A program made the position numbers and the translations under genes. The notes beneath the pieces were generated by a model that made no database searches, was not told the origin of the DNA, and was given only the letters and a program-made list of their open reading frames with translations. Of a stretch of 64,000 nucleotides of DNA, positions 361 to 12,513 are shown one piece after another. Where the stretch lies: the UHGV virus genome UHGV-0390448. One strand, 5' to 3'. The stretch's first letter is position 1; each line of letters opens with the position of its first letter. Source of the DNA: a virus.

Positions 361-1985
361 AATGGTCTTAATGGCCCGATGTCACCATTTTCACCCTCCC
401 CTTCATTTGTCGGGATAAGATGAAGATATTCCTCGGATCTCCTGAAGATAAGGCCAAAGGCCTGGTTAAATATTCGAAGGGCATTTATTGTGCCAATTTT
501 TAGCTGCCCCCCCATTGTGTCGCCAGAACGCTGAACGGCGTTACCAGCTTGAGAAGCAATATCCGTTAAGCCAAGATCTTCAGGGGTCAGAGTAATATCT
601 GCCGAACCGTCAAATGCCACACCGTTAATCTTTCTGGCTGTTTTTAATTTCGTCGCAGTATCGGAGTTCCCGGTCAGCGTACCAGTGATCCCCGCGCTGA
701 AAGTCTGGCGCGCACTCCAGGTATTAGCTGTGCTCAACAGAGGGATCTTTTCTCCGCTGGTTCCGAGTTCTCTTAAACCAAGGTATTGGATAACAGCCAG
801 TGTGCTTGTTTTAGCAAGAATATCGCGACCGACTGACGTTAAATCAGTCTGGGCTACAGTGTCTGTTCCGGTAAAGTACGGTAATTTATTTGCTCCCGTC
901 GCCAGGCCAGCGAGCGCGGTTAAGGTTGCGTCGAGAGGCTGCTTACCTGCCAGGGCATTTGTCATTGTAGTCGCAAAGTTCGGGTCATTGCCCAGTGCTG
1001 CGGCAAGCTCATTCAGGGTATCAAGAGCTTCTGGTGATGAGCCGACCAATGCAGAAATAGCGGCACGAACATAAGCGGTTGTTGCAATCTGAGTGTTGTT
1101 CGTACCTTGTGACGCCGTAGGAGCTGTTGGAATCCCCGTAAATGCCGGGCTTAATAACGGCGCTTTAAGAGCTAACGCATCATTAATCGTCTGGCTAAAC
1201 TGGGGATCATTGTTTATTGCATCTGCAATTTTTTTCAGCGTATCCAACGCTGAAGGAGAACCATCAATAAGGGCGGTTATTGCGGCCTGAACAAAGGCAG
1301 TGTTTGCGATTTGTGTACTGTTTGTACCTTGTTCCGGAGTTGGAGATTTAGGTATACCAATAAACTCCGGGCTATCAACCGGAGCTTTTAGTTTGTTTAA
1401 CGTGCTGATAGCAAGAGGTGTTGCGGCTTTATATTCTTCGTCACTATCCAAAGCACTGGAAAACTCAACACCTACAGCACGATTAGCACGATATTCAGTG
1501 CTAATCATATCTGCGGTAACGGCTTGAGCATTGTCAGGCACGATCACGCGGCATAGCTCAATCTGGTTAGATGCTATTTCCTCATCAACGAGAGCAATAA
1601 TTCTCGCTGCGCTAATATCCGATGAACTATCTACCTGGCTGGTTTTCACTCCATGTTCGTAATTAGCTTCAAGAACGATGATTGTCGTTACACCAGCTTC
1701 TACAGGAACAAGAACATCACTGACTTGCTGCACGGATATCTGACATTTACCCACGTCAATTGAAGCCGCCCCTCTTCCCTCTGTTTTCTCGGATGTAATC
1801 CGCACAAACAGACCACCCCCTGGCACCGGGTCAAACCCACAGTACACTCCGGGCAGAACGATATTTTTCATCTTCCTGTTTAGAGCTTCGGTGCTATACA
1901 GCTCAAAGTATTGCATGTCTGCAATTAGTGGAGCGGAAATGTCCGAAGATAAGGTGACAATATTCTTTACTTTATCTGCGCACAT
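1..1985 (-). CDS. Tail fiber protein, 5-prime part; ORF runs off the window edge
   Basis: Minus-strand ATG at 1985 preceded by GAGGGA RBS, directly after the stop of the upstream gene; frame stays open to position 1. Hand translation gives tandem ~40-aa repeats (ATKLKTARTIGGVAFDGSANI) typical of phage tail fibers. Confidence 0.75.
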   Translation of the reverse strand, partial: MCADKVKNIVTLSSDISAPLIADMQYFELYSTEALNRKMKNIVLPGVYCGFDPVPGGGLFVRITSEKTEGRGAASIDVGKCQISVQQVSDVLVPVEAGVTTIIVLEANYEHGVKTSQVDSSSDISAARIIALVDEEIASNQIELCRVIVPDNAQAVTADMISTEYRANRAVGVEFSSALDSDEEYKAATPLAISTLNKLKAPVDSPEFIGIPKSPTPEQGTNSTQIANTAFVQAAITALIDGSPSALDTLKKIADAINNDPQFSQTINDALALKAPLLSPAFTGIPTAPTASQGTNNTQIATTAYVRAAISALVGSSPEALDTLNELAAALGNDPNFATTMTNALAGKQPLDATLTALAGLATGANKLPYFTGTDTVAQTDLTSVGRDILAKTSTLAVIQYLGLRELGTSGEKIPLLSTANTWSARQTFSAGITGTLTGNSDTATKLKTARKINGVAFDGSADITLTPEDLGLTDIASQAGNAVQRSGDTMGGQLKIGTINALRIFNQAFGLIFRRSEEYLHLIPTNEGEGENGDIGPLRPFSINLRTGLVSIGNGVTVSGGITGNLTGNADTATKLKTARTIGGVAFDGTANINLPGVNIAGNQNTTGNAATATKLQTARTIGGVAFDGSANIDLPGVNKTGNQSTTGNAATATKLQTAR

Positions 1986-1987
1986 AA

Positions 1988-2434
1988 TTATCCCTCGACC
2001 TGTTCAATGGTCATGAGCAAGCTGTATCGCTTACCTTTGAATAAGGTGTCCTGTTGAGTGCAAACAACCCCAAAAGCCTGATCCTCTGCATCTACGAGAA
2101 CCAGCGTATTGAAATCGTAAGGTGTATCGTCCGGCATCGTTTCTTGTGGAAAAGCGGCATTAATCGTAATGACACCATCGAGGCTGGAAAGAATGAGATT
2201 GGATTCAGCAAAATGCTGTGCATCACTTAACTTGAAGTCGAGCGGAATATCAGAAATAGTCCAGCCACCAGCACTATTTACCGTCACAAGATCTGACTTG
2301 CACCAATAAGCCTTTGTCATAACAAAACGCTCACCCCTGCCGATTGCAGACTCTGCACGGCGAGAGTAGTAGTAAGAAAGGAGTTGCGCCTTGTAAATAC
2401 TTGAATCGCTTTGAGATTTTAAAGTTTCAGCCAT
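1988..2434 (-). CDS. Hypothetical tail/baseplate-associated protein
   Basis: 148-aa ORF immediately upstream of the fiber gene on the same strand with abutting stop/start; function by position only. Confidence 0.45.
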   Translation of the reverse strand: MAETLKSQSDSSIYKAQLLSYYYSRRAESAIGRGERFVMTKAYWCKSDLVTVNSAGGWTISDIPLDFKLSDAQHFAESNLILSSLDGVITINAAFPQETMPDDTPYDFNTLVLVDAEDQAFGVVCTQQDTLFKGKRYSLLMTIEQVEG

Positions 2435-2550
2435 AAGAACATAGCCCCTTTAACAAGCAATAAATCGAAGGGCAGTATGTTCAGTTTGTGATTTCCGGTG
2501 GTCTTCTATTTTAAGAAATGGCCCCACCCAGTTTGGCGGGGCCTGGTTTG

Positions 2551-3393
2551 CTAAGGTGCAAAATTATAATCCAGCGCCCAGGCGTCGAGCGGAAGTTCAT
2601 CGAGATGAAGCACTCTTTCCGTCGTCCGGTCTGGCCTTCCAGCGAACTGGATGCCGTCTAATTGAATGATCGTATCGCTAATAGATAGTTCATCGACCAT
2701 CTCTTGCGTCGTGTACACCCCCTCAATAAAGGACACTTCCGCAGATAAGCAATTCAGGATCTCCGCCATTTCCGGCAATGTTGCGCTCAACTGGAAAGAA
2801 ACACCATCAAACACGATATGCAATGGCAATAGCGGCGCTATAACCGTATCAAAATCAGCAAGTAGCTTCTGTACAGCAACGTCTCTGTCATCGCTATCAT
2901 AAGCTCGATACAGCTTATTTTGGTTGACGACAACCAGCCCTCTGGATGTCAGGAAAAACTCACCATATTGTGCCTGAGCGGTCGGTATTTCATTTGCGGT
3001 CGCGAAGAATGAACCATAGGGATGTTTTTCTGTATCGACAGGCGCATACAAAGGTTCCCATGAGACGGGGATTGTGCCAAATTCACGCCAGAACGTTTGC
3101 TCTATCGGCCTTACTGTTCCTTTGAAGTGCACCTCATCCAGTCGTTGAGCTAATAGCATTGGCCTGCGTGTTTTGTCCGTTTCTGTGATAACAAAGAAAC
3201 GACCATATTCAGCAATGCGAGTGTCCATATCCTCGCTTGCCATTGTGAAAAACGATTTACGGTTGCTTATTCGCGTGAGAATAGGTTCAACCGATTCATT
3301 CCACACGTCCTGAATCGTATCAACAAAGGCGGCCCACAATTTAGAATCCTGTTTAAATTGCGTCAGACGCTCTTTTAGCCAGTTATTCTGCAT
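2551..3393 (-). CDS. Putative baseplate protein
   Basis: 280-aa ORF in a co-directional tail module between a gp25/W-like gene and the fiber; positional inference. Confidence 0.4.
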   Translation of the reverse strand: MQNNWLKERLTQFKQDSKLWAAFVDTIQDVWNESVEPILTRISNRKSFFTMASEDMDTRIAEYGRFFVITETDKTRRPMLLAQRLDEVHFKGTVRPIEQTFWREFGTIPVSWEPLYAPVDTEKHPYGSFFATANEIPTAQAQYGEFFLTSRGLVVVNQNKLYRAYDSDDRDVAVQKLLADFDTVIAPLLPLHIVFDGVSFQLSATLPEMAEILNCLSAEVSFIEGVYTTQEMVDELSISDTIIQLDGIQFAGRPDRTTERVLHLDELPLDAWALDYNFAP

Positions 3394-3402
3394 TGTGACC
3401 TC

Positions 3403-4833
3403 TTACGGATAAGTTATGCTGAACGTTGATGATTCCACGTCCAGATAAACAAAATCATTAAAGTACACAGCTTCTTTCATGTTCTGCGTAGCCACGTCAT
3501 AAGACAGGAACATATCCAGCGATTCGATTACTCGCCAGATATCTTTTACTTTGACCTGTGCATAACATTGCTGTGAGTCGTCATCACTCTGCAATAGCTG
3601 GCTAAATGACATGGAGTCTTTACCGAAGTTCTCCTCCAGTGCCGCTTTAATTGCAGTTAGCGCGTCATCCACCAGCACACTCTTTTTTACGATACCGGTA
3701 AATTTGATGTTGAACGGCTGTTCATTGGTGGCGACGTATTCGAACTTCTTATTCAGCTCATTAGGGATACTCTCAAGGGCTGATAATATCTCTGTTTTCA
3801 GAGCTTCCTGTGTTACGCCGGGCTTATGCCCACAAAAGAAAATTTTGTTGATATTACGCACATCAAAGCCCGTTATTTTCTCCTGTAGCGCCTCCCCCCA
3901 CACGTTAAGCCATGACGTGCCACTGACCACGTTCTGAATGAACTGGCGGTAATCACCGCCCCAAACAACCTGCTCATCGTAGGCCACATAATACTGCGCC
4001 CTGTTTCGGGTTTCCTCGGTAGTTTCCATGCCACCACCGCCAGAAATGATCGAATCGGTTTTTACTTCCAGTGATTCGACATACCCGGAGATGTTCCCTG
4101 CTGGTTCAAGTTTCTGGCCTTCAGCCAGCGTGTAATCACCGAGGCTGGCCATAATATCAATGCGTACCTGACTCCCTGCCGCTGGCATCATCCCCATTGA
4201 TCCATCACCGAAGCGCACGCCGATCTGTTCTGTCGGCTTATAAACCAACACATAATGTTTACTGTTATCCCTGGACATGCGGAATAGGGGGTTATGTGTC
4301 CATTTTTCCTCGACACCATTAGTTATCACGACAACTTCCAGGCTGGCGACTTCTGCTGTTAACTCACGGGAAAGTAACAACGTCAGGAATGGTGTTTCTT
4401 GCACCACGTCGAACGTTATGCTGACTGCTTCATGCTGTTTTACTTCTATGCCGGATACTGTTTCACCAGCAGGGATAACAACACTACTGCTTGTTGCAAT
4501 TGGTGTCTGGTCACTTGTCAGTAATTCAGCCCCTCCGGGTAGCGTAATATCCCTGTCGGTTTTGTTGGTGATGGAAACAGTGCCGTATGACGCATCGACC
4601 AAACGACCGACATAGCCACGGTCTTCCGCTGCCGCGAGAATACTTGCTCTGCGCGTCGCGGTGGAAATGAATCCTTCTGTAAGTGCACGGCTTGCAAATG
4701 TACGCGCAATATAAACAATCTGCGCGCCAAAAACGGACTGCATTTGAATAAACTGGCTGTTTACAAATCGCGCCCACCAGGGGTTTTCGTTCAGCTTGGC
4801 ATTAAACTTGTCCAGTAATTCGGTAATACTCAC
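3403..4833 (-). CDS. Putative baseplate protein (J-like by position)
   Basis: 476-aa ORF immediately downstream of the gp25/W-like gene with 4-nt overlap, the usual place for a baseplate J-type protein. Confidence 0.4.
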   Translation of the reverse strand: MSITELLDKFNAKLNENPWWARFVNSQFIQMQSVFGAQIVYIARTFASRALTEGFISTATRRASILAAAEDRGYVGRLVDASYGTVSITNKTDRDITLPGGAELLTSDQTPIATSSSVVIPAGETVSGIEVKQHEAVSITFDVVQETPFLTLLLSRELTAEVASLEVVVITNGVEEKWTHNPLFRMSRDNSKHYVLVYKPTEQIGVRFGDGSMGMMPAAGSQVRIDIMASLGDYTLAEGQKLEPAGNISGYVESLEVKTDSIISGGGGMETTEETRNRAQYYVAYDEQVVWGGDYRQFIQNVVSGTSWLNVWGEALQEKITGFDVRNINKIFFCGHKPGVTQEALKTEILSALESIPNELNKKFEYVATNEQPFNIKFTGIVKKSVLVDDALTAIKAALEENFGKDSMSFSQLLQSDDDSQQCYAQVKVKDIWRVIESLDMFLSYDVATQNMKEAVYFNDFVYLDVESSTFSITYP

Positions 4834-5204
4834 GCTGTATCTCCGCTATCTTTCTGCATAACAACATTCACGGTGCCTCCTTTTGCCTGGAAGCTAATTA
4901 GTAACTGGTCTTCAGAGACAGTCGCGCAGCGGATCGCCTGGAGTCCAAGCCCTGGTAAGTCCTGCTGTAGCTTCGTCATCATTCGCGCTTCAATCGCCAC
5001 TTCAACAATGTGTGACGTATCAGAACCGAAGGGTTCGTGTTTGAACTCCTCCATCGGATTCCCCCATGACGGCAATCCGTAAACGCTGCCATTTGGTGTC
5101 CGTAGCCATTCATCGAGTCGGGCTATCCAGGCGTTTGTGTCGCCTTCAGCGATCACCACCCCGCTCTCGTTTGTCTGAAGGCGGGCATCAATCTCATAAA
5201 GCAT
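4830..5204 (-). CDS. Baseplate wedge protein, gp25/W-like
   Basis: 124 aa, contains GSVYGLPSWGNPMEEF resembling the conserved gp25/GPW motif; lies directly after the tape measure gene. Confidence 0.5.
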   Translation of the reverse strand: MLYEIDARLQTNESGVVIAEGDTNAWIARLDEWLRTPNGSVYGLPSWGNPMEEFKHEPFGSDTSHIVEVAIEARMMTKLQQDLPGLGLQAIRCATVSEDQLLISFQAKGGTVNVVMQKDSGDTA

Positions 5205-5209
5205 CGGTC

Positions 5210-8200
5210 TTAATCCTCCAGTAATTTGTCAAGAGATGGGTCATTGATAGTCGTGCTGGCACGCTGACGAGGTTGTGGTTGTGATGTGTTCACAACTTTG
5301 TCCTGATCGCCTTTGCGGTTGTCTTTGCTTACGCCAAGAATCTCTTTGAGAACGGAATAAACGTTCTCCAGTGCTTTCAACATAGCCGGATCGTTATTTG
5401 CGGTATCTGTTGTTAGCATCTGCCTTATTCCGCTTCGTGCGAGGTCCGTGACGGTTGGTAGCTGAGGAGGCATTGCAAGGAACGGTTCTTTAGCAGCCAC
5501 GCCCGAAGCAAACAGGCTTTGATTGATTGCACCAGTCGTGTCCCTGATCGTATCCGCCGTTTTCTGTATGCCACCATTCAGCCAGCCGCCAACACTTCTT
5601 GTTAACGGACTAATAGCGCGAGCAACATCGGTATTCTGTCCAGAGGACTGCAATACAAAGTCATTTAACATTCCGGTGCTATCGATACCGCCAACAAGTC
5701 GCGAGAGGTTATCTCCAACGGCGGGGAGGACGGCGGAGCCTACCTGTTTAAGCCCTGACACCGTTGAATCAAATAGCGAGCCAAAGAAGCCCCTGTCCTC
5801 ACCTTCAACCACCTTGTAGCCGTTGTCGTAAATCTGCACACCCGCCGGTGTCGATGTGGCACGCTTCCCGCTGATGGTTGCCGGACTCTCCGGAAGCAGG
5901 TCAATGGTTTCTGTATCGCGGTTAACGTTGCGCTTTTGCTGTATAGCCGTAGTGATATCGGCGATCTGTTCCGCCTTCTGGAAACTAAAGTTTTTGCCCG
6001 TTGCTCTGGATATTTTTTCAACAAGGAACTTATCCAATTGCTTGGCTTTTGCTGCTAACGAGGACATCTCTTCCGGAGAACTGACAGGGCCGAGATTTAG
6101 CCCCATATTGGGATCTCCCCCAACTATCCCGGCGATGACGCCCCCAACACCGTCTGCACTCATTAACCGATCCGTCAATTCGGCTGCGGCGGAAGATTTG
6201 CCACTAGCTTTCGCGTGGCTGATCGCCTGGGCATTTTCCTGTTGAGCCGCCTTCGGTTTTTTAGCTGCCTGTGCGTGTTGAACCACATCAGTAGGGGTAG
6301 GCATTACAGCCTGGGCTACGCTTGACGCAGGAATAGCAGAAGATGAGCCGTTGGCGTATTTGACTTTGCTACCGACACTATATTGGGAGTTGCGAGCGAT
6401 TAGAGGACCGCCCTTTTCCTTCTGGATTTTATTAATGTGTTCCAGTGTTTCATCATTGAATTGCCCTTCCCAACGCCCAGTTTTAGCGTTGAATGAACCA
6501 AGAGCTGTTTTGATGAAATTGTTGTTAACCGCCGGGTTCCCCCCCTCCTTCGTCGCAATAGCGCGAACAAGGTGCGTCATAACTTCAGGGTTACTAACGT
6601 CTATTTTATCGTTGGGGGATACCCCTAGATATTTGCTGACGTTTTCAATGTACTGATTGGTGTTGTTCTCTGTTGGTGGTGCCCATTTTGAAATGATGCT
6701 GGATACTGTTTGCAGCTTCTGATACCCGGCGGCAGCACTTGTACCGTTGTAATAACTCGATACCTGGTTTGCCAATGCCCGAATCCCTTCTTCGGGCGTA
6801 TTAAACCGCGCAAAACGCTGTTCGCCTTTCGCGTTCGGCGCTTCCAGCACCGCCCCCTCCTGATTTGCAAAAACCAGGTTCCCCAGGTTGTTATTCCGGT
6901 AATTCCTGTTCTTGGCGTTGCTTCCGCCTATATTCAGATCAGCCGTTATTGTATTTTTTTCAGGCGCTTTAAATTCGTCTGGCGATTTGTAGCCGTGTTC
7001 ACCCACGCCATCCTCACCTCTGCGCCCGCCCTGTAGCTGTCGGGCCAGATCATTAATTGCGGCTACCGTTTGCTTGGTGCCATCTTCAACGGCTTTCTTA
7101 ACCTGCGCAGTGCCTTCGCTGCTTGATGAGAACGATTCTTTTAGGCTGCTGAATGCGTTCTTCGACGCGTCGATAGAACTATTTATGCCGCGAGCGATAT
7201 TGCTGGTATCAAGACTCTGAAGTTTTTGTCCGACACCTTCAAAGCCTAGCGCGGACATCCCCTCGCCAATGAGGTTAGCCGCTCCCGTCACCAGACCGCC
7301 CATATCCAGGACGTTAGCAGCGGCGTAGGCGCTCTTTTGCTGTGTTGTAACGTCCTGCCCTTCCTTCAGGTTATAAGTCGCCCTCTGCGCTTCTGTGTCG
7401 CTGTAGCCGTCTACGGCATCATAACCAACCATAGCCACCTGGCCGATGACTGGAATCGCCCTGAATCCGGCCCTTGCGGCAACACCTCCGGCAGCTTTGA
7501 GAGCCACTTTTCCAGCTTCTTTTTTCGCGATGTTTTCACCAGTGGCAACGGCAACCTTACCCGCCTCTTTCCTGGTAAGGCTTTCCCCAGCGGAAGTTGC
7601 CGCTTTACCAGCGTCTTTCCCTGCCGCTCCACCAGCCGCCGTTTTGGCTACGCTTTCTTCAGTGACCTTACCTGCTCTGGTTTTAACTGAAGATTTATCA
7701 CCCGATGATTTTGGTGAGGTACTACCCTCGTTCCCACCAGCATTTTTTGTCCGATTTTTTTCCTCGCCCGCACTGTTGTTTTTGCCTGGCTGATTTTTTT
7801 TCCCCTCTTTGCCTTCCTGACTCCTGCCCGTCTCAGTAGGTTTGCTGGTGTTTTTTCCCTTCTTGCCCTTGTTTTCTTTACTGTCTCCAGTGCGGCCCGT
7901 GTTGCCACCACGTGCACTGCTACGACCGCGTGTAGGGGATATTTTGGAACGTAATCTGCCACCGCCGAGGAGGTCGCTCAGTTTTAGCCCACTCTCCTGC
8001 GACTTTCGTAGTTTCCGGATCTCTTCGGATACAGTTTCCAGCTCATCAATTATCTGGCTGTCGTTGCGTTGAAGAACTTTCGTTTGTTCTTCGATCGCAC
8101 GTACAGATTTTTCTTTAACGGCTTCAGTAAATGCCTTTGCTGAACCGGGCGCGTTATCTGGAGTCTTCCTTTCATTGTCAGGTGCCGGGTAAGTAATGGC

Positions 8201-9127: not shown

Positions 9128-10075
9128 TTAATAATGGTTAGCCATCCATTCAGATCTAATTGATGGGATAAACTCTCTATTGAGAAATGGGGCGTACAGC
9201 GTGGTAGTCACGTCTGCACCCTCCTTAGCGTTTTTGCAGCGTTGTGGCGGTAGGATCAGGCGGCTTGTGCCTCGTTCAATAGCCATTTTTAAGCCGTGGC
9301 GAAGGTCTTTCTGCATGAGCTGAATGCGAGCTACCAGAGGGGTAAACTCGGTTTCCAGTGCCATGTTTTCAATGATATCGAATCGTCTGTTTGCAGCTTG
9401 TGTGAAGTCTTCTGGATCGTCGTTCAGAGATGTACACAAGGCCAACTCAGCTATGCGGAGACGAGCAACCTCAGCACTGTACTCTGGAGTTTTCATATCA
9501 GGCAAAGTGGCGCGCATACGCTCAAGCAATTCAGCGCCTTTCCCTGTTAGTGGTTTAAGCGTCCACTCGGTTGGTACTCCGTTTATAGGGACCATAGTTT
9601 TAATAAACGGCGGGACTGTCAGGATTTCTACCGTTTCGGCAAGGTCTGAAAGGTTAATATCTGCGTGATGAACGTTTCCACAGTGACCACACTCGTATGA
9701 GTAAGTCATTACGGCATCTGGTCTGGAATTGACAAAGATCCACCAAAGCGCGGTTCTGCGATCCTGAACTGTCCAGTTTGAGCTGTCGTTAATTTCGCCA
9801 TCTTGCATGGCGTTGAGGTATTCTGTTGTGGTTGCCTCGTCTTCTGCCGGATTGATGTCTGAATATTTCAGGGCATCTTTCACAGTAGGTGCATGAAACT
9901 GAATTTCTATTTCAGGCTGTGAAGGTAATGGGAATTTGGGAATGTTCAAGGATTCCTCCAGAAAAGTCGGTACTCGTTTGGCTGGAGGATAGGGAGTGTG
10001 TGATTTTGACTTTAACCTATTTATCCACAGGGTAGATCCAATAAATAGATCCCAAAGAGAACCAGTAAGATCCAA
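9128..10075 (-). CDS. Hypothetical protein (possible tail assembly protein by position)
   Basis: 315-aa ORF directly upstream of the tape measure gene; its 5-prime end overlaps the DnaA-box/GATC part of the replication origin. Confidence 0.45.
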   Translation of the reverse strand: MDLTGSLWDLFIGSTLWINRLKSKSHTPYPPAKRVPTFLEESLNIPKFPLPSQPEIEIQFHAPTVKDALKYSDINPAEDEATTTEYLNAMQDGEINDSSNWTVQDRRTALWWIFVNSRPDAVMTYSYECGHCGNVHHADINLSDLAETVEILTVPPFIKTMVPINGVPTEWTLKPLTGKGAELLERMRATLPDMKTPEYSAEVARLRIAELALCTSLNDDPEDFTQAANRRFDIIENMALETEFTPLVARIQLMQKDLRHGLKMAIERGTSRLILPPQRCKNAKEGADVTTTLYAPFLNREFIPSIRSEWMANHY

Positions 10076-10234
10076 AGAAGATCCCGGATCGCTGCGAGCC
10101 GCGCCATCACTGGCCTAAATGGAGATCAACATTGACTATGTGCGATTTAATGTTGACTATGTGCGATTTAATGTTGACTGTACGCGATTTAATGTTGACT
10201 ATATGCGATATAAACATTGACTGTATGCGATAAT
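10022..10234. promoter_or_regulatory. Plasmid replication origin: DnaA box, five GATC sites (four in AGATCC context), five ~21-bp direct iterons
   Basis: Perfect DnaA box TTATCCACA at 10022-10030; GATC at 10036, 10049, 10069, 10081, 10088; five tandem iterons (consensus aatgttgactatgtgcgattt) at 10131-10234, immediately upstream of repA. Confidence 0.8.
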
Positions 10235-10311
10235 TCTCTCAGCCCTCAGACGGCTGTGGATAAGTATCTTTCATTTGGCTATAAAGCCCCGTCAATCAAG
10301 GAAATAACAGG

Positions 10312-11196
10312 ATGGTAGATGACAAAAAAGGCTTTCTGAACGTTGAGGAAATATCAGGGAATACCGGAGAAATCCACAGCTTAAAGCCTAACAATAATAG
10401 CACTATTCAGCCGATAGCTTTGTTGCGGCTTGGGGTGTTTGTTCCCACATTGAAATCTACCAGTGTTGCTTTACGTCGCAAGAACGCCGGTTTAACTAAC
10501 TCCACTGATGCGACAGAAGAACTGTCCAGCCTGAAGATTGTAGAGCAGGAAGGGTATCAGGGTATTGAGATTCATGGGCCACGGCTGGATATGGATACTG
10601 ATTTTAAGGTGTGGATAGGCATTACATCTGCATTGTTTGACTATAAACCAGATAATGATGGTGTGATCACCCTGACATTCTCTGAATTTGTGGATCGTTG
10701 CGGTTATCCAAGGAAGCGGCTGTCCAAGGCTTTTCGCAAGAGCATTGGCGACTCTCTAACGCGTATTCAGCAGACGTTGCTGAAGTTCAACTTGCCCACC
10801 AGCAAAGAACATGTTCGTTATATCCAGATGAATTTATTGGCATTTAGTGAACTTGATACTGAAAATGACATTATAAGAATCCAACCGCAGAAGCAGTTGT
10901 CTGAGTTGTATTACGTTGACTATAAGCGAATATTGAAGCTCAAAATGCTCGATAAACTTGGCAGGAAAGAGACAGCCAAGGTGCTTTATACGTTTTTCGA
11001 AGCGTTACCTTCAAACCCTGCGCCAGTGAGTATTGAGCGCCTTCGCGCCAGATTGAACCTCAAATCATCGGTTAGCGTTCAGAACAGTGTGATTCGTAAA
11101 GCCATGAAAGACTTGGAAGCTGTTGAATATCTTAAATTTTCAGAGATAAAGAATGGTCGGAAAATAGGTTTCCAGATCCATAAACGAAATCCATAA
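10312..11196 (+). CDS. repA: Iteron-binding plasmid replication initiator RepA
   Basis: 294-aa ORF flanked upstream and downstream by iterons; sequence (QPIALLRLGVFVP, MDTDFKVW) resembles the RepA family of P1/RepFIB replicons as I recall it. Confidence 0.8.
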   Translation: MVDDKKGFLNVEEISGNTGEIHSLKPNNNSTIQPIALLRLGVFVPTLKSTSVALRRKNAGLTNSTDATEELSSLKIVEQEGYQGIEIHGPRLDMDTDFKVWIGITSALFDYKPDNDGVITLTFSEFVDRCGYPRKRLSKAFRKSIGDSLTRIQQTLLKFNLPTSKEHVRYIQMNLLAFSELDTENDIIRIQPQKQLSELYYVDYKRILKLKMLDKLGRKETAKVLYTFFEALPSNPAPVSIERLRARLNLKSSVSVQNSVIRKAMKDLEAVEYLKFSEIKNGRKIGFQIHKRNP

Positions 11197-11198
11197 CA

Positions 11199-11426
11199 TT
11201 GACTGTGTGCGATTCCAAGCGTTGACTATACGCGACAAACATTGATGCTGGCGGATTTAGTTATTAACTTTTTCACATGATCAATGGATAAACCAGCTAT
11301 TTCATTGAGTATTTGTCGCTTATAGTCAATCTTTCCTCATTTCTTGTCGTGTGTAGTCAATGTTTTGTGATCGGGATCGAGTACAGTCAACATTAGTTGT
11401 AAGCCATTTCGCCTATAGTCAACATT
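11199..11426. repeat. Downstream iteron cluster (incA-like copy-control locus), mixed orientation
   Basis: At least six copies of the ttgactRtRYgcga core: direct at 11199-11216 and 11222-11239, inverted (tagtcaa) at 11318-11332, 11349-11363, 11380-11394 and 11411-11426. Confidence 0.7.
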
Positions 11427-11442
11427 TCTCCATCAGCAGTCT

Positions 11443-11731
11443 TAAGGGCAATTTCTACACCTCTCTGTAGGTGTAGGATTTGCCCTTAAAGATGGGAGAT
11501 TGAGGGCAATTCTTACACCATTAGTGAGTTGGTTGGAGCTTTAACGGCTAACATCATTTGTAATTTATTGATTAATAAGTAATGTGTAAAAATCACCCTC
11601 AGATAGCATCGTATGTTATAGCTATTTTTATAGCACACCTGTTAAGTGTTTTTTGAATGTAACTCATTGATTTTGTTGTGATGTGTAAAAATGCCATCAT
11701 TGACGTAAACAGCAGGTGTAGAAATTGCCCT
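11443..11731. repeat. Unassigned repeat family AGGGCAATTTCTACACC (four copies incl. a 44-bp near-palindrome)
   Basis: Near-palindrome aagggcaatttctacacc-ctctctgt-aggtgtaggatttgccctt at 11444-11487; further copies at 11503-11519 and inverted at 11715-11731; AT-rich region with two tgtgtaaaaat copies lies between. Confidence 0.6.
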
Positions 11732-11775
11732 CAAGTTTGCCCCTTCCCCACCTTCTCGCACTTTAATATTGCATT

Positions 11776-12513
11776 TCAAAACTTGATCACGTTGCTGGCG
11801 GCGCTTTTAAGTGCGCTTGTTGCTAAACCAGCAGCTCCATTGACTAATGCGGACAGGCCGGAACCAGCAGATGTGTATCGCTGGAACGTGATCGGATAGG
11901 ACAAGAATTCGGACACCTGATCACGTGAGCGGCTGATCTCTCCTATTTGAGTAGGAAATACACGCATTTCCTCTTCCAGCTCTTTCCCGCCTTCCTGTGT
12001 AACGCGGTATAGCCTGATATTCATGAGATAATCTGGCGGCAGGTTTAGCGTACCATCGCTATTGGTTACACGGGCGCGGCGCTCCTTGAACCAATTCATT
12101 ATTTTGCCGTCTTCTGTGTCTCTGACCGTCATTGTTACCGGTCCGGCGGTTACGTGCGTTGGCTTATTGAACTCGACGCTACCAATGATTTTGCTTTCTG
12201 TTTCAATATTCCCGCTACTGTAAGTTATGTCCTTAACGAACATATCAAAGCCGCTTAATCCGTCTACATCTACCGTCCACTGCCAGCCCTGGGCATAGCG
12301 GATACGCATAGCCGTAGCAACTACGTTCTTTCCGTAAGCGATGTCATTGCCATAGCTCCCACTAACGCCACTGCCAGACACCGCTCTATCCAGAATGTCG
12401 CTGATAAGGTTGCTGGTGAACGATTTCGCGCTAAACGATACCGCACTGGCTAGCGTTTGCGTTGCAGCACTAAAAATACTCACGTAGCCCTCCGTGTTAA
12501 AAAATGGTAGCAC
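11776..12513 (-). CDS. Hypothetical virion structural protein
   Basis: 245-aa ORF in a long co-directional block with tail sheath and other structural genes; no motif recognised. Confidence 0.4.
   Translation of the reverse strand: MLPFFNTEGYVSIFSAATQTLASAVSFSAKSFTSNLISDILDRAVSGSGVSGSYGNDIAYGKNVVATAMRIRYAQGWQWTVDVDGLSGFDMFVKDITYSSGNIETESKIIGSVEFNKPTHVTAGPVTMTVRDTEDGKIMNWFKERRARVTNSDGTLNLPPDYLMNIRLYRVTQEGGKELEEEMRVFPTQIGEISRSRDQVSEFLSYPITFQRYTSAGSGLSALVNGAAGLATSALKSAASNVIKF

Follow-up and report, generated by a model that had tools for sequence, protein, structure and literature searches.

An iteron array of a RepE-like replicon, probably stranded by replicon replacement, in a D6-like Escherichia coli phage-plasmid

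Control iterons and replicon exchange in related systems

Among the closest known systems is the mini-F replicon (RepFIA, ori2/repE/incC). As read directly from F (NC_002483), it comprises two DnaA boxes, an AT-rich stretch, four ori2 iterons, the gene repE (251 aa) and five incC iterons. The incC locus is a negative regulator of copy number and an incompatibility factor; its deletion raises copy number, and RepE at ori2 and incC is thought to loop or pair both loci (PMC13028717). In phage P1, RepA controls initiation and copy number via two groups of 19-bp iterons, which also set incompatibility (PMC10999674). For RepFIB, the downstream iterons suffice without rep to cure the cognate plasmid (PMC11983097).

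Replicon replacement is documented for the P1 subgroup of phage-plasmids. The available sections of three sources describe replacement of the plasmid replication gene within a conserved P1-like backbone (IncY and p0111 types; PMC9603915), record 17 replicon changes on one tree (PMC11165635) and propose replicon exchange as an escape from incompatibility (PMC10879196); these sections make no mention of stranded control iterons. These exchanges took place within the P1 subgroup, at another locus than the one described here. For the D6-like plasmid pYU39_89, a "repB associated with iteron sequences" has been mentioned in passing (PMC6799933). In the literature covered, to which the D6 genome paper did not belong, neither a stranded control array nor homology of the D6-type replicon to RepE/incC was found described; both may nevertheless not be new.

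The DNA analysed here, a stretch of 64,000 nucleotides from virus genome UHGV-0390448 (the window), is that of a D6-like E. coli phage-plasmid, about 30 kb of which fall outside the window. A complete relative, NZ_CP085065 (94,191 bp), is 97-98% identical over most of the window.

The repeat array and its counterpart in D6-type replicons

A search with the 17-mer AGGGCAATTTCTACACC, allowing up to three mismatches, gave exactly four matches in the 64-kb window, all inside 290 bp (Table 1). By chance, 0.13 matches would be expected, and four matches did not occur in any of 100 shuffles. The initial annotation had described these four copies, together with a near-palindrome and an AT-rich stretch, and all three were recovered. 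The arms of the near-palindrome (11442-11462 and 11469-11489) are 21 nt long each, 90% complementary and 6 nt apart, and G+C content is 28-33% across 11500-11700. An outer inverted pair of 27 nt each (11436-11462 and 11714-11740) encloses a 251-bp segment. Comparison with diverged relatives revealed two additional, degenerate copies, iterons 4 and 5, which had been missed before and are conserved in those relatives. When the motif was searched for in the whole window and in complete NZ_CP085065, it was confined to this single cluster.

Table 1. Positions of features at the replicon locus of the window.
Feature	Position	Strand	Description
Resident replicon cassette	10007-11431	+	1425 bp; occupies the place of the D6-type origin and repA
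DnaA box	10021-10029	+	exact TTATCCACA
Resident tandem iterons	10152-10203		core TATAGTCAAC; starts at 10152, 10173 and 10194; 21-bp period
DnaA box	10255-10263	-	exact TTATCCACA
Resident repA	10312-11196	+	294-aa product
Core copies within resident repA	10636, 10915		TATAGTCAAC
Resident downstream iterons	11221-11423		copies at 11221 (-) and at 11321, 11382 and 11414 (+)
Relic of D6-type repA 3' end	11432-11445	+	ATCAGCAGTCTTAA; last 14 nt of the gene (..Q-Q-S-stop), from alignment to D6 and pEC361_3
D6-type iteron 1	11445-11461	+	AGGGCAATTTCTACACC, 0 mismatches; left arm of near-palindrome
D6-type iteron 2	11470-11486	-	AGGGCAAATCCTACACC, 2 mismatches; right arm of near-palindrome
D6-type iteron 3	11503-11519	+	AGGGCAATTCTTACACC, 2 mismatches
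IHF core consensus match	11561-11573	-	AATCAATAAATTA, exact to WATCAANNNNTTR; 9 bp from iteron 4
D6-type iteron 4, degenerate	11583-11599	-	AGGGTGATTTTTACACA; same place in D6, pEF-4 and pEC361_3
IHF core consensus match	11660-11672	-	AATCAATGAGTTA, exact to WATCAANNNNTTR; 10 bp from iteron 5
D6-type iteron 5, degenerate	about 11683-11699	-	about ATGGCATTTTTACACA
D6-type iteron 6	11715-11731	-	AGGGCAATTTCTACACC, 0 mismatches
Tail tube gene (tub homologue)	11776-12513	-	right-hand backbone flank; D6 homologue annotated as major tail tube protein

Two convergent genes flank the array with their 3' ends, the resident repA on the plus strand and the tail tube gene on the minus strand. The longest open reading frame of the latter starts at a GTG and encodes 245 aa; relatives are annotated with a 235-aa product, and the true start probably lies at about 12483.

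Exact matches to the IHF core consensus number four in the 64-kb window, and two of these lie inside the array. Both are conserved in D6 and one in pEF-4. Each forms a 35-nt unit with its neighbouring degenerate iteron, and the unit occurs twice, 99 bp apart. With its putative IHF sites, the D6-type control array may form a bent nucleoprotein structure. Matches to a relaxed DnaA box consensus in iterons 4 and 5 were apparently not conserved in D6 when inspected by eye, and these segments were treated as iterons. In Rfam, searched at a permissive threshold with positions 11100-11900, only hairpins of the eukaryotic miRNA type were matched, far under gathering scores; these sub-threshold matches are due to the palindrome. 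A promoter and terminator scan of 11150-11900 gave one weak promoter-like site, not above chance level, and no terminator at the palindrome.

In phage D6 and approximately 100 related plasmids, the 17-mer surrounds the gene of a 251-aa Rep_3 initiator, which lies directly to the left of the array. Around this D6-type repA, 11-13 copies are found within 1.4 kb in D6 and pEC361_3, and as many in pEF-4, CP104667 and an E. marmotae plasmid. The layout begins with one far-upstream iteron; behind it come a DnaA box (ATATCCACA, which deviates from TTATCCACA at one position), an AT-rich stretch with GATC and a GC-rich spacer. Five tandem direct iterons come next; their starts are spaced by 32, 22, 22 and 23 bp, and 27 nt separate the last of them from the ATG of repA. 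One 17-mer copy lies within repA, and six downstream iterons, in the order + - + - - -, begin at the final base of its stop codon. The same iteron map was obtained for CP104667 (E. coli), an E. fergusonii plasmid and the E. marmotae plasmid. The six copies of the window match the downstream six one for one, with identical order and orientation. Tandem 17-mers phased at about 22 bp beside a rep gene, the arrangement of Rep_3 iterons, are thus present in the relatives, the corresponding part being deleted in the window. A second cluster that starts at the rep stop codon, as in arrays of the incC/incA type, was found downstream in every D6-type replicon examined.

The D6-type RepA matches Pfam families Rep3_N (2.9e-29) and Rep3_C (9e-16) as well as mini-F RepE (PDB 1REP; E = 1.4e-73). 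Like F RepE it has 251 aa, and the two proteins are 50% identical over 228 aa. ASR76345 and WP_021551825 are examples of this initiator, and the D6-type replicon corresponds to rep_cluster_1704 of MOB-suite. Mini-F also shares the order of elements, i.e. DnaA box, AT-rich stretch, upstream iterons, rep and a second array after the stop codon. The F iteron CTGAGGGCAATTTGTCACAG, present in ori2 and incC, and the D6-type repeat with its flank, TTGAGGGCAATTTCTACACC, have a 12-nt core in common (TGAGGGCAATTT). The iteron half away from this core differs and, by reading, seems offset by one base (CTACACC versus GTCACAG). The five incC iterons of F point in one direction, whereas the D6-type array has the order given above, a full-length palindrome and two IHF-consensus sites; inspection by eye revealed no comparable IHF-like sites in F incC and no evident F-style operator inverted repeat before D6-type repA. 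Judged from these comparisons, the 17-mers belong to a RepE-like replicon as its iterons, and their cluster in the window is a homologue of incC; the D6-type RepA is the predicted protein to bind them. By analogy, the six-iteron downstream array of D6-type plasmids most likely restrains initiation at the upstream origin.

P1 resembles the D6-type replicon in that it is a phage-plasmid maintenance replicon with five iterons upstream of repA and a larger group of mixed orientation downstream. Neither P1 RepA nor its iterons (ATGTGTGCTGGAGGG type) are related in sequence to their D6-type counterparts. The downstream group, called incA in the older P1 literature, remains with its cognate repA, whereas the array of the window is orphaned.

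Three deeply diverged versions of the array, represented by the window and pEC361_3, by D6 and by pEF-4, differ in 7-10% of the iteron columns versus 44-45% of the spacers. Copy number, order and orientation are unchanged across the three, and the cognate D6-type RepA is 98-100% identical at the protein level (87-91% at the DNA level of the gene). The 17-mers are the constrained elements of the array and have been selectively conserved.

Replacement of the D6-type replicon

Homology of the window to D6-type plasmids ends at 10006 and restarts at 11421-11432. The replaced D6-type cassette, located at 1938-3007 of the pEC361_3 locus piece, comprises repA and the origin region in front of it, with the far-upstream iteron, the DnaA box and five origin iterons. 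The last 14 nt of the old repA survive at the right-hand edge of the resident cassette (Table 1), which makes the D6-type replicon the earlier occupant. Iteron 1 begins with the final A of the relic's stop codon.

The 64-kb window (tblastn E > 2) encodes no D6-type RepA, and neither does complete NZ_CP085065, which is 98% identical and stands in for the plasmid part beyond the window, nor do eight loci of about 4-6 kb around the resident repA on further contigs. Unlike F incC, the array of the window has thus lost the initiator gene and origin that a working array of the incC/incA type has in cis.

The resident cassette carries its own iterons and DnaA boxes (Table 1). Its RepA, WP_016262357, has weak Pfam matches to Rep3_N and Rep3_C, of which only Rep3_C passes the cutoff, and no relative with a solved structure was found. 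In MOB-suite this replicon corresponds to rep_cluster_2164. The repA region is approximately 78% identical at the DNA level to that of the P1-like phage-plasmids JL22, SJ46 and RCS47. The resident replicon is not of the IncY type; it is related to that of JL22, which PMC9603915 assigns to type p0111. The exact 294-aa protein occurs in 1186 blocks of a public protein-gene index, mostly contigs of 20-200 kb, and the resident replicon type is far commoner than two PLSDB records had suggested.

The 17-mer had been regarded as distinct from the resident iterons, which agrees with their core, TATAGTCAAC. No BLAST similarity was detectable between the resident and the D6-type RepA, and binding of the array by the resident RepA was dismissed on the grounds that the iterons are unrelated and the initiators lack such similarity. 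From 11221 to 11731, control-type iteron arrays for two unrelated initiators stand back to back. That part of the initial proposal by which the repeats would bind some protein different from the resident initiator can be kept; the protein that they match is the RepE-like RepA of D6-type replicons, the gene of which has been replaced in this genome.

We consider it likely, with good confidence, that the array consists of D6-type iterons stranded by a replicon swap and is an orphan control locus without a role in the replication of its own plasmid. Recombination would have exchanged the segment from the far-upstream iteron through repA, except for its last 14 nt, for an unrelated cassette bearing its own iterons. 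The downstream array would have been left behind beside the tail tube gene as an orphan homologue of incC, without cognate initiator and most likely idle in the replication of its carrier. As suggested by F incC and RepFIB, D6-type RepA supplied by a co-resident D6-type phage-plasmid would still bind it in trans, and the array could then depress replication of that plasmid via titration or handcuffing.

In the D6-like Enterobacter plasmid pJBIWA008_2, whose tail tube protein shares 77% identity with that of the window, the same slot (4367-7732 of the locus piece) is occupied by a P1-type repA, iterons of the ATGTGTGCTGGAGGG type, parA and parB, and the 7.7-kb locus around the slot contains no copy of the 17-mer. 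Because this slot holds another replicon and no 17-mer, the array follows the history of the D6-type replicon and not that of the tail genes, and the backbone probably does not need it. With the P1-type module of pJBIWA008_2, the slot beside the tail tube gene has taken at least three different replicons.

At 1991-2557 of its locus piece, the Salmonella plasmid pSa1423-160k (169 kb) has a truncated D6-type rep gene, annotated with 129 aa and accompanied by one 17-mer; another, complete copy of this region is present at a different place of the record. The short locus may be another relic of a D6-type replicon.

Orphan arrays across the lineage and alternative readings

The configuration of the window was found in six complete E. 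coli genomes. All six, and six of eight further contigs, share a 99-bp deletion that removes exactly one unit of IHF-like site and degenerate iteron via recombination between the repeats spaced 99 bp apart. In some of these copies, a T within the conserved core GCCCT of iteron 2 is also changed to G. The arrays of the two other contigs are identical to that of pEC361_3, and the window differs from the latter solely by one A missing from iteron 5. In CP042620, the same resident cassette and right-hand junction are combined with the D6 version of the backbone, the spacers of which are about 45% diverged. Here iterons 1 and 2 are lost and a hybrid of iterons 1 and 3 is present, apparently the product of a crossover between iteron 1 and iteron 3 (about 5370-5400 of the locus piece versus 11432-11519 of the window). 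This hybrid junction suggests that the conserved 17-mers are short homologies through which replicon cassettes move between diverged backbones.

Iterons 1, 2, 3 and 6 are kept in all ten copies with the window backbone that were examined, and only CP042620 has lost iterons 1 and 2. All four orphan-specific changes, i.e. the 99-bp deletion, the change in iteron 2, the 1-nt deletion in iteron 5 and the loss in CP042620, fall in iterons, which in these small numbers is suggestive of decay. Variable columns amounted to 2/102 in iterons and 16/230 in spacers among orphan arrays, and to 1/102 and 12/230 among D6-type arrays. Such counts do not discriminate between relaxed and maintained constraint, given that orphan arrays differ hardly or not at all from D6-type ones. 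Since intact orphan arrays are identical to those of D6-type plasmids, continuing recombination hides any signal of relaxed constraint. The persistence of the array in a widespread lineage, with iterons 1, 2, 3 and 6 kept, can be reconciled with retention under selection instead of neutral persistence.

In a comparison with the D6 version, 99 of 105 plasmid records covered at least 80% of the query, and among the matches listed each was a single colinear piece. Three D6-type plasmids have an IS200/IS605 insertion within the array, between iterons 5 and 6. As such insertions are tolerated, the D6-type control group is not perfectly intact either. One example is NZ_LT906557, where the element (tnpA and tnpB) lies at 4904-6593 of the locus piece; the array is interrupted in like manner in two or three more records.

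Stranding by the swap might have been followed by selection of the array as an incompatibility weapon, which would displace incoming D6-type phage-plasmids while its bearer is immune. The array, lacking rep, would titrate or handcuff the incoming RepA, and the bearer would be spared by its different initiator. Precedents are the curing of RepFIB plasmids by downstream iteron blocks without rep (PMC11983097) and the role of F incC as an incompatibility factor (PMC13028717). Iterons E-K of RepFIB in pCURE cassettes, which like the orphan array are a downstream block without rep on a replicon independent of them, are by analogy the best functional counterpart of the orphan state. The pCURE plasmids are engineered and often based on a higher-copy vector, whereas the orphan array is natural and resides in a low-copy prophage. 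The orphan configuration is also widespread, iterons 1-3 and 6 are present in all ten copies with the window backbone that were examined, and the common 99-bp deletion drops exactly one unit without scrambling the array. We nevertheless regard selection as a weapon as quite unlikely. A low-copy prophage offers few decoy sites, the orphan-specific mutations land in the iterons themselves, and recent, repeated recombination with D6-type relatives can explain persistence, the arrays being identical. The six complete genomes of this type are too few to give co-occurrence statistics any power. The broader notion that a replicon-switched phage-plasmid with its old, rep-less iterons would be a natural curing cassette excluding D6-type relatives, and that its iteron islands would be the homologies by which cassettes move, is conceivable if unlikely.

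The initial annotation had suggested a lytic origin or a further centromere, and a regulatory operator would be a similar reading in which the array binds a protein encoded by this genome. The tight cluster of sites, the AT-rich core and the two IHF-consensus sites do look like an origin or a partition site. Neither proposal agrees with the positions of the corresponding genes, as repL and parM/parR of NZ_CP085065 are annotated at separate loci with no 17-mer near, and the slot locus of pJBIWA008_2 has no array. Binding of a resident protein is further made very improbable by the restriction of the motif to one cluster in the window and NZ_CP085065, by the tandem origin iterons that the same motif forms around the D6-type rep in relatives, by the lack of any 17-mer in the 7.7-kb pJBIWA008_2 locus with its other replicon, and by the position of the cluster between convergent genes with no convincing promoter or terminator found. 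That the structure is an invertible switch, a miniature transposable element (MITE) or a target of site-specific recombination is scarcely tenable: the 21-nt arms with their 6-nt spacer recall a recombinase core site, 27-nt inverted repeats flank 251 bp and a tyrosine recombinase is annotated elsewhere in NZ_CP085065, but all relatives aligned or scanned keep the place and orientation of the segment with no inverted form seen, the matches listed for further records are colinear, the sole D6-like relative without the segment (pJBIWA008_2) has a different replicon module in the slot, the 22-bp tandem direct arrays of the 17-mer upstream of repA fit none of these models, and Rfam gave nothing beyond sub-threshold hairpin noise.

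Stranding of D6-type iterons by a replicon swap, the reading that we prefer, explains a repeat family that had looked unassigned without invoking a new system, and corrects its interpretation as a lytic origin or centromere. The replicon of D6-type phage-plasmids can be recorded as RepE/mini-F-like, with an iteron of about AGGGCAAWTYYTACAYC and a defined incC-like array, and the right-hand edge of its replacement in the lineage of the window is located with a precision of about 10 nt. For annotation, the locus is a warning against assigning an iteron cluster to a rep gene on the strength of adjacency. For the biology of these phage-plasmids, it raises the question of whether a stranded control array makes its carrier incompatible with relatives that still use the old initiator, or allows it to displace them.
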